From the sequence record MK327932.1: a DNA stretch of 64,000 bases; one strand, 5' to 3'. Below are positions 3,205-60,807 of this stretch, one piece after another. Made by a program: the position numbers and the translations under genes. This DNA is from Escherichia phage vB_EcoM_G2248. The notes below the pieces were generated by a model. The model saw nothing but the letters and a program-made list of their open reading frames with translations. It did no database searches and was not told where the DNA came from. Positions within the stretch are counted from its first letter, which is position 1, and the number at the start of each line of letters is the position of its first letter.

Positions 3205-5028
3205 TTATGATTGCATCCAAATTTTGCGCTGATCTGCATCTTCACTATAGAGCAAATCGAATAGCTCTTTATAGTTTTCCGGTAACGTGATGATCTCCAT
3301 GACAGGATCGTTGATCACGCGATGATAGTCTGATTCTGTGAGCGATGCTAAACCTTTGATATATCGAATGTTGTAACCTTTGATATTATCTCGGTCGTTC
3401 TCGAAATCTTCTAGGTCATAATACCATCGAACATCATCACCTTTCTTTGGTTCCGCAATGATAATAGGTGTTTTGATAAACCGGATTCGTCCATCTTCGA
3501 ACAATTCAGGCCAACGTGCAAAGAAAGAGATCAGACTAGGTTTAATAGACCCGATCCCGTCAGTATCAGCGTCTGTCATAATCGCAATATTTTTGTATTG
3601 CATAACGTCCAGCGCATCAACACCAAATTGCAAACCAGTGATCGCCATGATGTTAAAAATTTCGGCGTTCTTAACGATCTTTGCCTCTGGTTGTTCCCAC
3701 GTTGTAAGAGTTTTACCTCGCAACGGGAAACCGCCATGTAAATCTTGATCACGTACAGAGATCAGATAGTTGATCGCGGAATCACCTTCCGTCAAAAACA
3801 GGGTAGTTTCTGCGTCAGTTCCAATAAGGTTAGCTTTAACGTGTTTTGCCACCTTAGCCCGTTTCGCTGCCTTTGCTGCCTTAGTCGCTGCCGCTTTATC
3901 TGCTGCCTCTTTGCGTGCCAGGACTACAGCAATAATAGGCATGATAATGTTTTCTTTCTTAGCAATGACTTTAGCCAGCTTTTTAAAATCCAGATCAATG
4001 TGTCGCTTGATATCACCAGTTGGGTTAGTCAAGCGTTCTTTTGTCTGTGAATCAAAACGAAGGTTAGGCAATTCACGAACAATAAGAATACAGGTCAATC
4101 CAGACTTAACCGCAGCTTTAGTAACATCAACCTTATATTCTTTCTTGATTCGTTTTACAATCTCTTCACAAAGATCATCTGTCACGTAGTCTACGTGTGT
4201 TCCCCCGTTTTTGGTAAACAGACCGTTAGCAAAGGATACTGATTTAAAACCTTCTCCCTCGACCGCCGGAACTAGGGCAAGTGAAAAGTTTTTATCTTCA
4301 ATGACAAACGGATCATCATTGTATAGTTTAGCATAATCCTTGAACTTGCTGGTTATCTTTTTGCCATTAAACTTAAACGTGATCTTAGGAAAGATTACAC
4401 TCAATGAATACATTCGATCGCAAATCACATCTGAAATTTCTTGTGACATGATCATACCTTCAAAATGATCGAAATCGGGGCAGAACGTAACCTTAGTTCC
4501 TTTCAGTTTTGACGGCTTAGATGACCAGCTAATATTTTCTGCACCATTGGTACATTGAACGGTCAGTTCATTCTCTCCGTCACACGTCACACCAGTAAAC
4601 CAGGACGAGAAAAATGATGTGAGCGCGCTTCCGATCCCATTCATACCCATAGTAACACGATTTGTATCATCAAAGTTAGACCCTGCTTTAGCTCGTGTCC
4701 ATGCAGCAACTGGTTGTGGAATCTGTTTCCCTTCTGGCGTCGTAACAATATGTTGCGGAATACCGCGACCATTATCTGTTACTGACACAATGTTATCTTT
4801 TATATCCACACTAATAACATTAGCGTACTCAAAATTAGTGCGGATCGCCTCGTCCACAGAATTGTCGATAATTTCATCAATAATTTTAACTAGACCGGGA
4901 ACGTATGAAACTTTGGTCCATTTTCCAAATAGGAAACGATTGTGTGATTCATAAGTCGTTGACCCGATGTACATTGAAGGTCTCTTAAGACAGTGAGCGC
5001 GATCATCCAACAGCAAAAATTCAGACAT
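3205..5028 (-). CDS. 39: DNA topoisomerase II large (ATPase) subunit, gp39 with gp60-equivalent C-terminus fused
   Basis: 607 aa; GyrB-type GHKL ATPase motifs (DNGRGIP, GLHG-like) and TOPRIM-like region; length matches T2-type uninterrupted 39 rather than split T4 39+60. Confidence 0.9.
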   Translation of the reverse strand: MSEFLLLDDRAHCLKRPSMYIGSTTYESHNRFLFGKWTKVSYVPGLVKIIDEIIDNSVDEAIRTNFEYANVISVDIKDNIVSVTDNGRGIPQHIVTTPEGKQIPQPVAAWTRAKAGSNFDDTNRVTMGMNGIGSALTSFFSSWFTGVTCDGENELTVQCTNGAENISWSSKPSKLKGTKVTFCPDFDHFEGMIMSQEISDVICDRMYSLSVIFPKITFKFNGKKITSKFKDYAKLYNDDPFVIEDKNFSLALVPAVEGEGFKSVSFANGLFTKNGGTHVDYVTDDLCEEIVKRIKKEYKVDVTKAAVKSGLTCILIVRELPNLRFDSQTKERLTNPTGDIKRHIDLDFKKLAKVIAKKENIIMPIIAVVLARKEAADKAAATKAAKAAKRAKVAKHVKANLIGTDAETTLFLTEGDSAINYLISVRDQDLHGGFPLRGKTLTTWEQPEAKIVKNAEIFNIMAITGLQFGVDALDVMQYKNIAIMTDADTDGIGSIKPSLISFFARWPELFEDGRIRFIKTPIIIAEPKKGDDVRWYYDLEDFENDRDNIKGYNIRYIKGLASLTESDYHRVINDPVMEIITLPENYKELFDLLYSEDADQRKIWMQS

Positions 5029-46814: not shown

Positions 46815-46843
46815 ATTATGCTATACCCTATTCCGGTTGTCAA
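46815..46843 (-). promoter_or_regulatory. early promoter
   Basis: TTGACA-N17-CATAAT then CATCGACAA leader; just downstream of terminator 46856-46883. Confidence 0.5.
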
Positions 46844-46855
46844 CACCTAAAAACG

Positions 46856-46883
46856 AAAAAGCCACCCTTTCGGATGGCTTTTT
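46856..46883 (-). terminator. rho-independent terminator after the 714-aa gene
   Basis: hairpin AGCCAUCC-GAAA-GGGUGGCU flanked by A-run and U-run. Confidence 0.6.
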
Positions 46884-46892
46884 GATTATATT

Positions 46893-49037
46893 TTATTCAC
46901 GTCCATTTGTATAGTAGTGTTTGAATCGACCGTAACCAGTTTCAATGGTCATTGTTCTTTGGTGAACAATAGCCCAATAACCGTTACAGGAATCTTGCAG
47001 ATACAAATCTTTACCTTTCATAAACTCATTAAAGATTGTTTTCTGCCAGTCATAATAGACAGAATCTTCAATCTTATCCATCCAACCGTGTGGGTCTTCA
47101 AGCAGTTCAACAAGTTCATCGATAACCCAATACGGACACGGACTAAATCGACCTTTACTAAATTCGTTGAACACAGTAACGGTTTTAGCTTCCGGTCTAG
47201 GTTCATCAGGTTCTTCCGGTCGACGATTAACCACAACCTGAACATATTTTGTATAACCGATAATTTCCCCAGAGTCCAACTCATCGTTATTGTTCTGGTC
47301 AGCAAAAGCAACGAATCTATAGACTCCAGAGTCACCTATAGTAGCATTAACTTTTGTGTATATCGGTGTTTTGGGATCGATAATCGGCAACCGAACACCA
47401 TTTTTACTAAACTCATACGTTGGAACGTATGTAGAAGGAGGATTTAATGTCGTTGCTTCTAATGTCAAAGTATCCCCTTCCATAATCTGTACAGGATGAG
47501 GTCCGTCAAATTCCATATTAGGAACAACTTCAACATTATAGGTTGCACGCCCTGCAATATCATAATCATGATGCGCACTATATGGGTCTACACTAGGACT
47601 ATCTCTATATTCATGCGCCCAAATGCCATTATGTTCACGATCCGCAGAGTCAGTAATTTTATACTCTTTAGCCTCAATTGGTAGTTCGGTCACAAAAACA
47701 TCATTTTTTGTTATAACCAAAGAACGAGTTTGAGTAAAATCGCTACTTGCGGGTGGCTCTGGATCGACGATCTTAATAACAATAGGTTCACCAACCTCAA
47801 TATTTCGATAATCGTATTCTTTGTCATAAATGTCAAGCATACGACGGTCGTAAAATAATGGCCTTCCTTTATTGAGGTCATATGCACCATCTTGATTAGA
47901 AGGGGCAACTAGTAATTGTAAAGCAACGCTATTATCATACTGCAAGTCCGATAAAGTAATTCGGTCATAACCTTCATCGCCATATTTTTTGCTTTGTAGA
48001 GTTTTACCACCCAACATCCACGTAAAATAAACATTATTATTAATCAAACTATAATGTCGATTCCACGTATTATCGGATGTTACTAATGGCATATCTAGAT
48101 TGACGGTGGACCCAGAAGGATAACGAAATTCAACGGAATTAAAATCACGATCAAAAAATTCATTGTCTTTGATTGTTACCGTGAATCTATGACGATCACC
48201 ATCAATATATGCTGTCCCTTCTCTGGTTTCACTTGCGGCCTTATATGCACGAACCAAAGCAACATAAACACCCGCATCGGTTTCTTGAGCATGTTTCGTT
48301 ACAAACAGAGTCCTGTCTGTAGATTCATAAATTAAGCTACCATCTTCTCTTTCCAGACGATAACGGACAACGGTATATTCATCATTGGCGGGAGAATCGT
48401 CTGTCACCGTAAAATAGACAGGAGCATATTTCTGTGCGTTAAAAATTTCCGCGCTTTCCTGAATGGTGGCCTCAAACGGATAAACAAATTTCACGTCACC
48501 CGCTTCATCGCTAAGTTCCATTCTATATGTGCCAGAAAATTCAGGCCATGCAAATTTTGCAATTTTAAATTCACGATGGTCTAAACCAAGATCCCCGTCA
48601 ATAGTATCAACAAGACCGTCATTATAATAAAGGTCGATAGAAATGTTTTCTGGGATATGAATACGAAAAACAATTTTAGCCTTTATTTCGTCACCAACCA
48701 CAAAGGAAGTTGGAGGATATACATATTCAACATACTGATTATCAAATAATTCAAATGTGAAATTTTCCGTGCCGATATCAACGGATTCACCAGCAAAATC
48801 ATTATCATCTTGGGCATAGCCACGAACATTAACAGACCATCCTGTTTTATCGCTTTCTTTCACAGATTTTAATTCAAAAGACGGTGTATCGGTTGTAGCA
48901 ACAACCACCCCACCTTTTTTCCAAACATAACCTTTTTTCGGTTTAGTTGGATCATCTGATTCGGCAGCAATTGAGCACGCGAACGTATGAGGAAGCCAAA
49001 TGGTTGTGTTAATGCTAGTATCTTTTACTTCTGGCAT
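46893..49037 (-). CDS. large beta-rich protein, function unknown
   Basis: 714 aa; strong SD GGGGGAA; repetitive beta-strand-like segments and distinct C-terminal domain; followed by terminator 46856-46883. Confidence 0.55.
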   Translation of the reverse strand: MPEVKDTSINTTIWLPHTFACSIAAESDDPTKPKKGYVWKKGGVVVATTDTPSFELKSVKESDKTGWSVNVRGYAQDDNDFAGESVDIGTENFTFELFDNQYVEYVYPPTSFVVGDEIKAKIVFRIHIPENISIDLYYNDGLVDTIDGDLGLDHREFKIAKFAWPEFSGTYRMELSDEAGDVKFVYPFEATIQESAEIFNAQKYAPVYFTVTDDSPANDEYTVVRYRLEREDGSLIYESTDRTLFVTKHAQETDAGVYVALVRAYKAASETREGTAYIDGDRHRFTVTIKDNEFFDRDFNSVEFRYPSGSTVNLDMPLVTSDNTWNRHYSLINNNVYFTWMLGGKTLQSKKYGDEGYDRITLSDLQYDNSVALQLLVAPSNQDGAYDLNKGRPLFYDRRMLDIYDKEYDYRNIEVGEPIVIKIVDPEPPASSDFTQTRSLVITKNDVFVTELPIEAKEYKITDSADREHNGIWAHEYRDSPSVDPYSAHHDYDIAGRATYNVEVVPNMEFDGPHPVQIMEGDTLTLEATTLNPPSTYVPTYEFSKNGVRLPIIDPKTPIYTKVNATIGDSGVYRFVAFADQNNNDELDSGEIIGYTKYVQVVVNRRPEEPDEPRPEAKTVTVFNEFSKGRFSPCPYWVIDELVELLEDPHGWMDKIEDSVYYDWQKTIFNEFMKGKDLYLQDSCNGYWAIVHQRTMTIETGYGRFKHYYTNGRE

Positions 49038-49059
49038 GTATTCCCCCTTGTGACTGGCA

Positions 49060-49458
49060 TTAAGCCAGTCGAGTGAGTTTATAAATGGTTTTAAAGCATA
49101 GAGCTTTGATATCGTCTAAAACGCTCTGTAACGAGCTATCAACATCATTATAAATCTCACTAGCCATTTGCGTTAACTCTTGCAAATAGGCAATTTCGCT
49201 AATCTCCTTGCGGACGACCAACGTTGGTTGATAACGACCAGTGATCCCAATATTGGTTTCAGTGAAATTATCAACCAATTCTTGCATTTCAAGATAGAAC
49301 TCTTCTAGCGCCTTATGTTTTGCATAAGAACCAGGACCAGTCACCCCAAAATGCGCAGAATGCATATAAGTAACACTCATCAGACATTCACCGATAAAGC
49401 GGTCAACTTTATTAGCTTTCCCGTCTTCGGACGTCTTTCGAAAATCACTGAATTTCAT
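49060..49458 (-). CDS. hypothetical protein, possibly ferritin/Dps-like
   Basis: start at internal ATG with GGAG SD (MKFSDF...); HSAHFGVTGPGSYAKHKALEEFY resembles the Dps H-x12-H ferroxidase helix. Confidence 0.35.
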   Translation of the reverse strand: MKFSDFRKTSEDGKANKVDRFIGECLMSVTYMHSAHFGVTGPGSYAKHKALEEFYLEMQELVDNFTETNIGITGRYQPTLVVRKEISEIAYLQELTQMASEIYNDVDSSLQSVLDDIKALCFKTIYKLTRLA

Positions 49459-49747
49459 GTTCTCGATTCTCCATATTATGCAACATAACAAATTGGTTTG
49501 CGGCATATTCCCCCATAATAAAACACTGCTTAGAGTCCATACATTTACTACGAGCGTACATCTTCATAATGTGGGCATGAAATTTCTGGCTGGTTTCAAT
49601 GGAAGGAGATATTTTGTTTACATATACTATCATCGCACCGTCGAAATAATCAGTAAAGTCACCAGTTAGATCATATTGATCAGCACTGACACTTCCGACC
49701 GCTGTCAAGCATATTGCCGTTGTTAGAGTTTTACGAATAAATGACAT
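49445..49747 (-). CDS. small secreted protein (signal peptide)
   Basis: 100 aa; N-terminal MSFIRKTLTTAICLTAVGSVSA; late-promoter motif TATAAATA about 33 nt upstream. Confidence 0.5.
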   Translation of the reverse strand: MSFIRKTLTTAICLTAVGSVSADQYDLTGDFTDYFDGAMIVYVNKISPSIETSQKFHAHIMKMYARSKCMDSKQCFIMGEYAANQFVMLHNMENREHEIQ

Positions 49748-49780
49748 GAGTCATTCCCCCAGATTGAAAATATTCAGTTA

Positions 49781-49788
49781 TATTTATA
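49781..49788 (-). promoter_or_regulatory. candidate T4-type late promoter (TATAAATA)
   Basis: minus-sense TATAAATA about 33 nt upstream of the ATG of the secreted-protein gene 49445-49747. Confidence 0.35.
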
Positions 49789-49815
49789 ATCTGGGGCTTT
49801 ATTTATGATTAACTC

Positions 49816-50412
49816 TTAGTTGGTAGTGCCGTCAATAAAATGTTTACGGCACACAGAAACATATTTATCCTCTGCACCAACTTCTATTTGAGCACCATCG
49901 CGAACAACATTACCCTCTTTATCTACACGAAGGACCATAGTTGCTTTCTTACCGCAATGACAAATACCCTTCATTTCGACCAGTTTATCAGCAAATGCCA
50001 TCAATGCCGCAGATCCTTCAAATAGATTGCCCTGAAAGTCGGTGCGAAGCCCATAACACAAAACAGGGATATTGGCATCATCAACCAGTGCACACAAGCC
50101 TAAAACATGCTCTTTAGTCATAAATTGGGCTTCATCTACAAACACAGCAGCAGGACGCCAGCGATCTGGTCTACGCTTACCTAGTGATTCACGATAAACC
50201 AAATCGAAAAGATCATCTGATTTAGTGAATGTGATCGCTGGAGCACTTAGACCAATTCGGGAAACAACTTCACTCTCTGAATCTCGATTATCAATCGCTG
50301 GCTTAAGAATCAATACTCGCATATCACGTTCGGTATAGTTATAAGCACTTTGTAACAGAGAAGTTGATTTGCCAGCGTTCATAGATGCATAGTAGAAATA
50401 TAATTGCGCCAT
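49816..50412 (-). CDS. tk: thymidine kinase
   Basis: 198 aa; P-loop SMNAGKST and C-terminal zinc ribbon CHCG...CRKH. Confidence 0.9.
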   Translation of the reverse strand: MAQLYFYYASMNAGKSTSLLQSAYNYTERDMRVLILKPAIDNRDSESEVVSRIGLSAPAITFTKSDDLFDLVYRESLGKRRPDRWRPAAVFVDEAQFMTKEHVLGLCALVDDANIPVLCYGLRTDFQGNLFEGSAALMAFADKLVEMKGICHCGKKATMVLRVDKEGNVVRDGAQIEVGAEDKYVSVCRKHFIDGTTN

Positions 50413-60312: not shown

Positions 60313-60358
60313 AATTTGATTCTCCGTTTAAGAAAGTGTGTTTCGTTTCGATGGGTGT

Positions 60359-60387
60359 ATTATGCTATAGGCCGGATCTGGTGTCAA
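60359..60387 (-). promoter_or_regulatory. early promoter
   Basis: TTGACA-N17-CATAAT then ACACCCATCGAAACGAAACAC leader. Confidence 0.55.
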
Positions 60388-60415
60388 CAACTTTTTTAAA
60401 AAAATTTTAGGCAAT

Positions 60416-60439
60416 AAAAAAGCCACTCCGAAGAGTGGC
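60416..60439 (-). terminator. rho-independent terminator ending the structured RNA region
   Basis: hairpin GCCACUC-UUCG-GAGUGGC + U6. Confidence 0.6.
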
Positions 60440-60584
60440 TTATAGGGAAGGTAGCGAATCTTCCTTGTCTCCAACCTGCTAGCGGCCTAGCAAGTGAATG
60501 CTTTAGCGTACCGGATCGCCCATACGCTGCAATAAATGCGGCTAGGTGACGTCCAAATCATTCTAACCGCGCTGTCTTTAGTTC
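60416..60584 (-). ncRNA. candidate structured small RNA between a late-promoter motif and a terminator
   Basis: about 170 nt without convincing ORF; four consecutive hairpins (8-bp GCGGTTAG/CTAGCCGC, 6-bp AGCGTA/TACGCT, 8-bp CTTGCTAG/CTAGCAGG, 5-bp GGAAG/CTTCC) then terminator GCCACTC-CGAA-GAGTGGC + U-run; TATAAATA at 60590-60597 upstream. Confidence 0.35.
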
Positions 60585-60588
60585 ACTA

Positions 60589-60807
60589 TTATTTATATCG
60601 CTTTCTCTCGCGACGTTTTTGATCTTCTTCCTTGATAGAGTTAAATGCATCAAAAAGACACATGACACTAATAATAAACATAACCGTATTTTCTACGGTA
60701 TCCCACGGCTTCGCATCAGTACAGATCCCCCAAACGGTAAGAAATGCAAATAAGGCAGAAGAGATCACAAGAATGATACTTGCTAAAATATAAAAAGTCA
60801 TTTTCAT
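60589..60807 (-). CDS. small membrane protein
   Basis: 72 aa, hydrophobic N-terminus, basic C-terminus. Confidence 0.45.
   Translation of the reverse strand: MKMTFYILASIILVISSALFAFLTVWGICTDAKPWDTVENTVMFIISVMCLFDAFNSIKEEDQKRRERKRYK
60590..60597 (-). promoter_or_regulatory. candidate T4-type late promoter (TATAAATA)
   Basis: minus-sense TATAAATA overlapping the stop of ORF 60589-60807, directly upstream of the structured non-coding region. Confidence 0.35.

Follow-up and report, generated by a model that had tools for sequence, protein, structure and literature searches.

A probable long second Hoc-type head fibre, product of the last gene of the rI operon in the Krischvirus phage vB_EcoM_G2248

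Findings

We analysed a stretch of 64,000 nucleotides from Escherichia phage vB_EcoM_G2248 (record MK327932.1; "the window" in what follows), a Krischvirus (RB49-like) phage, and focus here on a group of three genes on its minus strand, the last of which encodes a protein of 714 amino acids. A previous inspection of the letters alone (the sequence-only reading) had flagged this group as a "late operon". Judged by its genes and their order, it is the Krischvirus form of the known rI lysis-inhibition operon of phage T4, with an extra gene at the 3' end. It is headed by a T4-type late (gp55) promoter motif, TATAAATA (49781..49788, -), which lies, as had been claimed, 33 nt upstream of the first gene (rI ATG at 49747) and is conserved in relatives and in T4 too; a predicted RNA hairpin (49757..49796, -) surrounds this motif. 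The first gene, rI (49445..49747, -), encodes the RI antiholin of 100 amino acids (Pfam PF24205 Antiholin, E-value 1.8e-22; PHROG 1246, lysis inhibition, 2.2e-25) and is annotated as such in Phi1, RB49 and JK32. It had been described simply as a small signal-peptide protein, and its product does begin with a hydrophobic, signal-like stretch, LTTAICLTAVGSVSA. The second gene, rI.-1 (49060..49458, -), starts at ATG 49458, overlapping the end of rI by 14 nt, and encodes a Dps-like DUF5856 protein (PF19174, 7.8e-21; PHROG 858, 1.7e-43) of 132 amino acids, as in the annotated homologues (the mechanical open reading frame, or ORF, has 148). The third, the 714-aa gene (46893-49037, -), is preceded by AAGGGGGAAUAC-AUG and stands behind AAGGGGGAA, and the operon is closed by an intrinsic terminator (46856..46883, -) with a 12-bp stem including 5 GC pairs, a 4-nt loop and a T-run; a terminator is annotated at the matching place in GEC-3S. 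Both the strong Shine-Dalgarno sequence and the strong terminator attributed to the 714-aa gene are thus in place. The sequence of the protein is that of QBO62239.1 (Escherichia phage vB_EcoM_G2248, "hypothetical protein G2248_00084"), and its gene is labelled "hypothetical protein" in all the public records examined (G2248_00084, JK32_00086, Brandy, SSG23, SFHK24, UPWr_E1).

In T4, rI.1, rI and rI.-1 form an operon with a late promoter between tk (thymidine kinase) and rI.1; an early promoter lying 3.3 kb upstream transcribes the operon as well (Golec et al. 2010, PMC2962797). The operon itself is therefore not new. The order in the T4 sequence is tk, TATAAATA, rI.1, rI, rI.-1, with a terminator directly after rI.-1, and the G2248 operon resembles it in its position after tk, in the presence of TATAAATA in the tk-proximal gap, in the succession of rI and rI.-1, and in its closing terminator. 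It differs in three respects. First, rI.1 is absent, the tk-rI gap being only 68 nt long and containing no ORF (rI.1 is likewise absent between tk and rI in RB49, Phi1 and JK32). Second, a 2.1-kb Hoc-like gene stands between rI.-1 and the terminator. Third, the promoter motif lies inside a conserved hairpin predicted to occlude the ribosome-binding site of rI, for which we see no obvious equivalent in the T4 sequence.

The AlphaFold2 model of the 714-aa protein (predicted local distance difference test score, pLDDT, 77) is all-beta over residues 1-604 (47226..49037, -), which form six immunoglobulin (Ig)-like beta-sandwich domains: D1 (1-98), D2 (99-190), D3 (191-290), D4 (291-415), D5 (416-505) and D6 (506-604). 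They are followed by a disordered Pro/Glu-rich linker, RRPEEPDEPRPEA (residues 605-617; 47187..47225, -), with low pLDDT and devoid of secondary structure, and by a C-terminal alpha/beta domain (residues 618-714; 46896..47186, -). What had been read from the sequence, a repetitive protein rich in beta structure whose C-terminal domain is set apart, is thus recovered in the model as an Ig-like array and a separate C-terminal domain. With Foldseek, the full model matches six-domain Ig arrays (contactin Ig1-6, E-value 4.6e-18) and D6 matches IgV/I-set domains; against PDB and BFVD, the full model retrieved only generic Ig arrays and the identical UniProt entry A0A482GFY1. Pfam and NCBIfam gave nothing usable for this protein (only DUF7151, E-value 0.22), and no Pfam Ig model matched. 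Its isoelectric point (pI) is 4.62, to be compared with 4.74 for T4 Hoc and 4.64 for the Hoc of Phi1 (RB49-type). A signal peptide or lipoprotein signal was considered and ruled out, there being no hydrophobic segment.

Relationship to Hoc

We think that the 714-aa protein is a long second Hoc-type head-decoration fibre, expressed late together with the lysis-inhibition genes and anchored at the hexamer centres by its C-terminal domain, and we give this interpretation a probability of roughly 0.7. It is carried by the C-terminal domain, which profile methods identify as homologous to the capsid-binding domain of Hoc (T4 residues about 281-376). The protein matches the final part of the profile of PHROG 1149, "Hoc-like head decoration" (4.3e-11), and phmmer aligns its residues 513-701 with residues 199-370 of T4 Hoc (5vf3_Z; E-value 7e-4), the alignment reaching through the ESRNG loop. 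When an alignment of the long-protein family (15 members) was compared by hhalign with an alignment of the Hoc proteins of T4, Phi1, Klebsiella phage and EcS1, the match reached a probability of 97 % (E-value 7.8e-11). A tblastn search with the last 119 residues returned 833 phage records, 822 of them at less than 60 % identity, and among the matches listed nearly all of the weak ones fall on genes annotated as hoc or Hoc-like. The sequence-only reading had recognised no T4 counterpart of the 714-aa gene in the nrdC-tk region; there is one, hoc, but it stands at another locus. Among the functions that it had proposed, decoration and adhesion are favoured by the Ig array and the Hoc-homologous domain, and we find no support for an injected effector or for superinfection exclusion.

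The conserved residues by which T4 Hoc contacts the capsid are Y293, H295, R300, W309, W310, D313 and the loop E355-S-R-N-G359 (Fokine et al. 2023, PMC10385173). The loop QDSCNGY of the 714-aa protein corresponds to QESRNGY in T4 Hoc; W310, D313, Q354, S356, N358, G359, Y360 and C307 are all kept, and the changes of W309 to Y, E355 to D and Y304 to F are conservative. A second model, covering residues 505-714 and built from an alignment of 54 sequences including short Hoc-like proteins, reaches a pLDDT of 80-89 in the C-terminal domain and shows a strand, three helices and three strands. The C-terminal domain of T4 Hoc comprises a four-stranded sheet together with a bundle of three helices (PMC10385173), and the modelled order of strands and helices is consistent with this published fold.

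Several observations weigh against our interpretation. A number of T4 Hoc capsid contacts are lost in the 714-aa protein: Y293 and H295 are both replaced by T, H299/R300 are not kept (R300 to F/S), W306 has become P and R357 C, the latter position being occupied by Cys in G2248 and by Lys in the most distant member of the family (P0094). With the C-terminal domain of the Hoc type that belongs to the phage itself, the protein shares only about 30 % identity over 64 amino acids. In a Foldseek search with the C-terminal model the best 50 matches are all to the Ig domain, with no fold match to the solved T4 Hoc among them. A single-sequence phmmer search with the C-terminal domain against 1.84 billion representatives found only the long-protein family and no Hoc, a sign of the isolation of this family; it is profile methods that connect it to Hoc. 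On the side of expression, TATAAATA is present in 2 copies in the 64-kb window where 5.8 are expected by chance, that is, it is not enriched; the motif alone is not above chance, and its weight comes from its position and conservation. Finally, with an exposed Shine-Dalgarno sequence of its own, the 714-aa gene may be translated from early read-through transcripts as well.

The lost contacts bring up a variant in which the protein does belong to the virion and its Hoc-like domain has been retargeted, for example to the vertex-proximal capsomers only, to the neck or to the tail, so that the two Hoc-type proteins would not compete. The replacements of H295 by T, R300 by F/S, W306 by P and R357 by C speak for such a change, as do the sharply separate sequence cluster formed by the C-terminal domain and the retention of a canonical Hoc in the same phages. 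Yet most of the central loop, which makes contact with all six gp23 subunits, is retained (Q-D-S-x-N-G-Y), together with W310 and D313. Divergence alone does not imply a new site, because the Hoc of RB49, only about 22 % identical to that of T4, still binds T4 capsids (PMC10385173). We consider retargeting unlikely, though it deserves to be kept in mind. Our literature search for virion proteomics of Krischvirus gave nothing relevant.

As a Hoc-type protein, the 714-aa protein would not stand alone. T4 Hoc is a three-domain fibre of 180 Å, about 650 proteins carry the Hoc C-terminal domain, some with up to 10 Ig domains, and there are phages with two Hoc-type genes; Serratia phage Muldoon, for instance, has a 1174-aa Hoc with 10 Ig domains and a second one of 314 amino acids, and Enterobacter phage PG7 is among the examples of long or duplicated Hoc-like proteins (PMC10385173). 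From the domain count and the length of the T4 fibre, the 714-aa fibre would be roughly twice as long as T4 Hoc. It shares with Hoc proteins an acidic pI, a conserved anchor with variable distal domains, its non-essential character and the presence of another Hoc-type gene in the genome. It differs from them in having six Ig-like domains, too divergent for the Pfam Ig models, where the Hoc of T4 and RB49 has three; in a C-terminal domain that forms a separate sequence cluster and reads DSCNG in place of the ESRNG loop; and in the location of its gene, which comes last in the rI operon, within the "early" region, whereas canonical hoc is at the hoc-inh locus.

Our searches also brought up many short Hoc-like proteins of other T4-like phages (P0051, P0053, P0055, P0057, P0061, P0063, P0066, P0070, P0073), in which the classical order is inverted: the capsid-binding domain is N-terminal and precedes one Ig/Big_2-like domain. 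Two adjacent Hoc-type genes are found in EcS1 and in Klebsiella phage PSKm2DI.

Distribution and evolution of the long gene

The long protein forms 15 clusters in 5.8 billion proteins, all of 706-718 amino acids, and an exhaustive phmmer search of the 1.84 billion representatives added one further distant full-length member (P0094) and nothing else; intact full-length ORFs are thus present in 16 clusters (15 plus P0094), down to 45 % identity. The order tk, rI, rI.-1, long gene, terminator is the same in 7/7 distinct contexts, with variable genes further downstream. Within Krischvirus, a full-length long gene is found in five of 58 records (Brandy, SSG23, SFHK24, UPWr_E1 and JK32; 73-78 % amino-acid identity). 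The canonical 404-aa hoc is at the hoc-inh locus in all 58, including the five with the long gene; in G2248 this locus lies outside the window.

We considered whether the long gene could be an insertion rather than an ancestral component of the operon, and rejected this idea: in RB49 and Phi1, decayed pieces of both the N- and the C-terminal part of the gene survive, with different deletion end points. In both, the start codon has become ATA and the Shine-Dalgarno sequence is lost. The Phi1 remnant (3393-3600 in our context L001) shows a deletion between two GAAGACCC repeats, and that of RB49 (about 1468-1700 in L004) carries other deletions, one of them between two GGTCGATT repeats; ORF084.1, as annotated in Phi1, is a C-terminal fragment of the long gene and no separate gene. 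Because of these remnants we regard the long gene as ancestral, dispensable and repeatedly lost.

Where it is intact, the gene is under purifying selection, the ratio of nonsynonymous to synonymous substitution rates (dN/dS) being 0.16 over its whole length (with dS saturated). The C-terminal domain is the most conserved part (mean identity 83 %, dN/dS 0.11) and the distal D1 the most variable (mean identity 62 %, dN/dS 0.30). One could also imagine that the long gene is a duplicate of hoc that no longer has a function and is decaying, and its loss or fragmentation in most sequenced Krischvirus genomes would fit this view. However, intact ORFs of 706-718 amino acids persist in the 16 clusters with the low dN/dS values just given, and inactive copies decay visibly, by loss of the start codon, frameshifts and deletions; we find this explanation hardly credible. 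We also note that the long gene of the window is ~72 % identical at the nucleotide level to that of JK32 or of L014, against 93-94 % for rI.-1, which suggests either old allelic lineages exchanged by recombination or a fast evolution of the fibre.

Late promoter motif and rI hairpin

The motif TATAAATA is invariant in nine aligned tk-rI gaps (those of the window, Phi1, RB49, GEC-3S, JK32 and four metagenomic relatives), and it is also found in the tk-rI gap of L017, from a lineage in which the long protein shares only 45 % identity. We regard it as a conserved late-promoter motif heading the operon, with predicted promoter activity. The hairpin around it has a 9-bp stem. Its 5' arm (49788-49796, CCCCAGAUU) lies upstream of the motif and ends on the first T of the latter, while its 3' arm (49757-49765, AAUCUGGGG) covers the Shine-Dalgarno sequence of rI. 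The calculated free energy is -25.5 kcal/mol (z -6.4 against shuffled sequences), and the stem is kept in 9/9 sequences, with compensatory double changes at two outer-stem pairs (C-G to U-A and G-C to A-U) and G-U variants at other stem positions. An 18-bp hairpin of different sequence is present at the matching place in L017 (2143-2189, z -5.4), and a hairpin enclosing a late-promoter motif is also found in L009 (3244-3287).

This arrangement recalls the T4 genes e, soc, 49 and I-TevI, whose ribosome-binding sites are closed in read-through transcripts, the transcripts from internal late promoters being devoid of the 5' arm (Uzan & Miller 2010, PMC3014915). The likeness lies in the position of the late promoter, inside the hairpin or by its 5' arm, and in a 3' arm that covers the Shine-Dalgarno sequence; the difference is that the rI case is a prediction from thermodynamics and comparison. 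By analogy with T4 e, soc and I-TevI, the hairpin would gate the translation of rI. This gene is not listed among the known hairpin-gated genes of T4 in the literature cited here (PMC3014915 among it).

A separate late promoter for the 714-aa gene was also looked for; the only candidate upstream, TATAAACT, has two mismatches and was rejected as weak. A 7-bp hairpin (GACUGGC/GCCAGUC, 49052-49070, -) carries the rI.-1 stop codon in its loop, just 5' of where the 714-aa gene has its Shine-Dalgarno sequence. This hairpin is marginal over shuffled sequences (z -2.6) and partly kept in JK32 through G-U pairs, and we leave it uninterpreted. TATAAATA has one other copy in the window (60590-60597), which overlaps the stop codon of a hydrophobic ORF of 72 amino acids and is followed by ~275 nt devoid of ORFs (60313-60597, -), in which ARAGORN detected no tRNA and no Rfam family reached its gathering score.

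RI.-1 and the link with lysis inhibition

The resemblance to Dps noticed in the ~130-aa protein stands up to comparison. RI.-1 contains the segment HSAHFGVTGPGSYAKHKALEEFY, its best PDB matches are Dps/Dlp proteins (Bacillus Dps/Dlp, E-value 5e-5), and its residues H36, H48, D63 and E67 align with the positions of the four ferroxidase ligands of Dlp-2 (His, His, Asp and Glu). At the level of its sequence, RI.-1 can thus be called Dps-like. It resembles the Dps mini-ferritins in this similarity and in carrying aligned His, His, Asp and Glu residues at all four ligand positions. It departs from them in being shorter (132 amino acids) and in scoring far under the NCBIfam Dps cut-off (16 bits against 114, E-value 0.008); the formation of a dodecamer and the binding of iron would be predictions only. 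The RI.-1 of T4 has identical residues in the corresponding ligand motif.

RI.-1 modulates lysis inhibition in T4 (PMC2962797), and in all the contexts examined the long gene is invariably linked to rI and rI.-1. One may ask, then, whether the 714-aa protein is no virion component at all and instead takes part in lysis inhibition inside the infected cell; this would account for its constant position in the operon. Against this, the long gene is missing from the operon of T4 and of most Krischvirus phages, an acidic Ig array joined to a Hoc capsid-binding domain is the architecture of a decoration protein, and a protein with neither signal peptide nor membrane segment cannot join RI in the periplasm. 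We consider such a role highly improbable.

Flanking features

Upstream of the operon lies tk (49816..50412, -; Pfam TK 2e-51, PHROG 592 9e-80). On the other side, outside the operon, a sigma-70-type early promoter for the next gene, TTGACA-17-CATAAT (46815..46843, -), agrees with the consensus at 11/12 positions; a promoter is annotated in GEC-3S as well. Terminator and promoter together (46815-46883, -) form a "PeSL" cassette that marks the operon boundary. Such cassettes have been described for RB49/phi1 and proposed as recombination hot spots (Arbiol et al., PMC2839356). The same cassette is also found 3' of the 714-aa gene in distant relatives (L009, 6160-6220; L017, 5000-5070). The flanks share 94-98 % identity with RB49, Phi1, JSE and further Krischvirus phages.

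Discussion

From these results we infer a late timing of expression, a gating of translation, binding to the capsid, competition with Hoc and a role as adhesin; these could be combined as follows. Early in infection, read-through transcripts from tk would carry the hairpin that pairs the rI Shine-Dalgarno sequence with the segment just upstream of TATAAATA, and rI would be poorly translated. After the onset of replication, the gp55-RNA polymerase would start a few bases downstream of TATAAATA, giving transcripts that lack the 5' arm, and rI, the overlapping rI.-1 and the 714-aa gene would be expressed up to the terminator at 46856-46883. The acidic 82-kDa product, having no signal peptide, would remain in the cytoplasm, where its C-terminal Hoc-type domain would dock at the centre of the expanded hexamers of the major capsid protein, in competition with the canonical Hoc of 404 amino acids. 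The six Ig-like domains of the long protein would then project as a fibre roughly twice the length of T4 Hoc, and the variable distal domains could act as weak adhesins for mucus, glycans or cell surfaces while adding negative charge. The long gene would be dispensable and easily lost through deletion at microhomologies.

One may go a step further and suppose that the two Hoc-type fibres of different length compete for the hexamer sites, the long one being co-regulated with the antiholin and its Ig array keeping the progeny near infected cells or surfaces, which would promote the superinfection that triggers lysis inhibition. We think that this extension is quite improbable. If true, it would tie the decoration of the capsid functionally to the timing of lysis. 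An iron-oxidising Dps-like protein within a lysis-inhibition operon, if true, would be curious.

Conclusion

Long and duplicated Hoc proteins, the late rI operon and hairpin gating were all known before, and no new principle is involved here. What we consider new is the assignment of the long family to the Hoc kind, the unusual location and co-regulation of its gene, its divergent anchor and the predicted hairpin at rI, which would be a further case of late-only translational gating. The assignment provides a testable function, and a useful re-annotation, for a family so far labelled "hypothetical". Phages that are otherwise about 95 % identical, with or without a long second Hoc fibre, would make a natural comparison set for the roles of Hoc-type fibres in adherence to mucus and surfaces, in dispersion and in immunogenicity, and this may be of relevance both to phage therapy, for which these Krischvirus phages are candidates, and to Hoc-based display.

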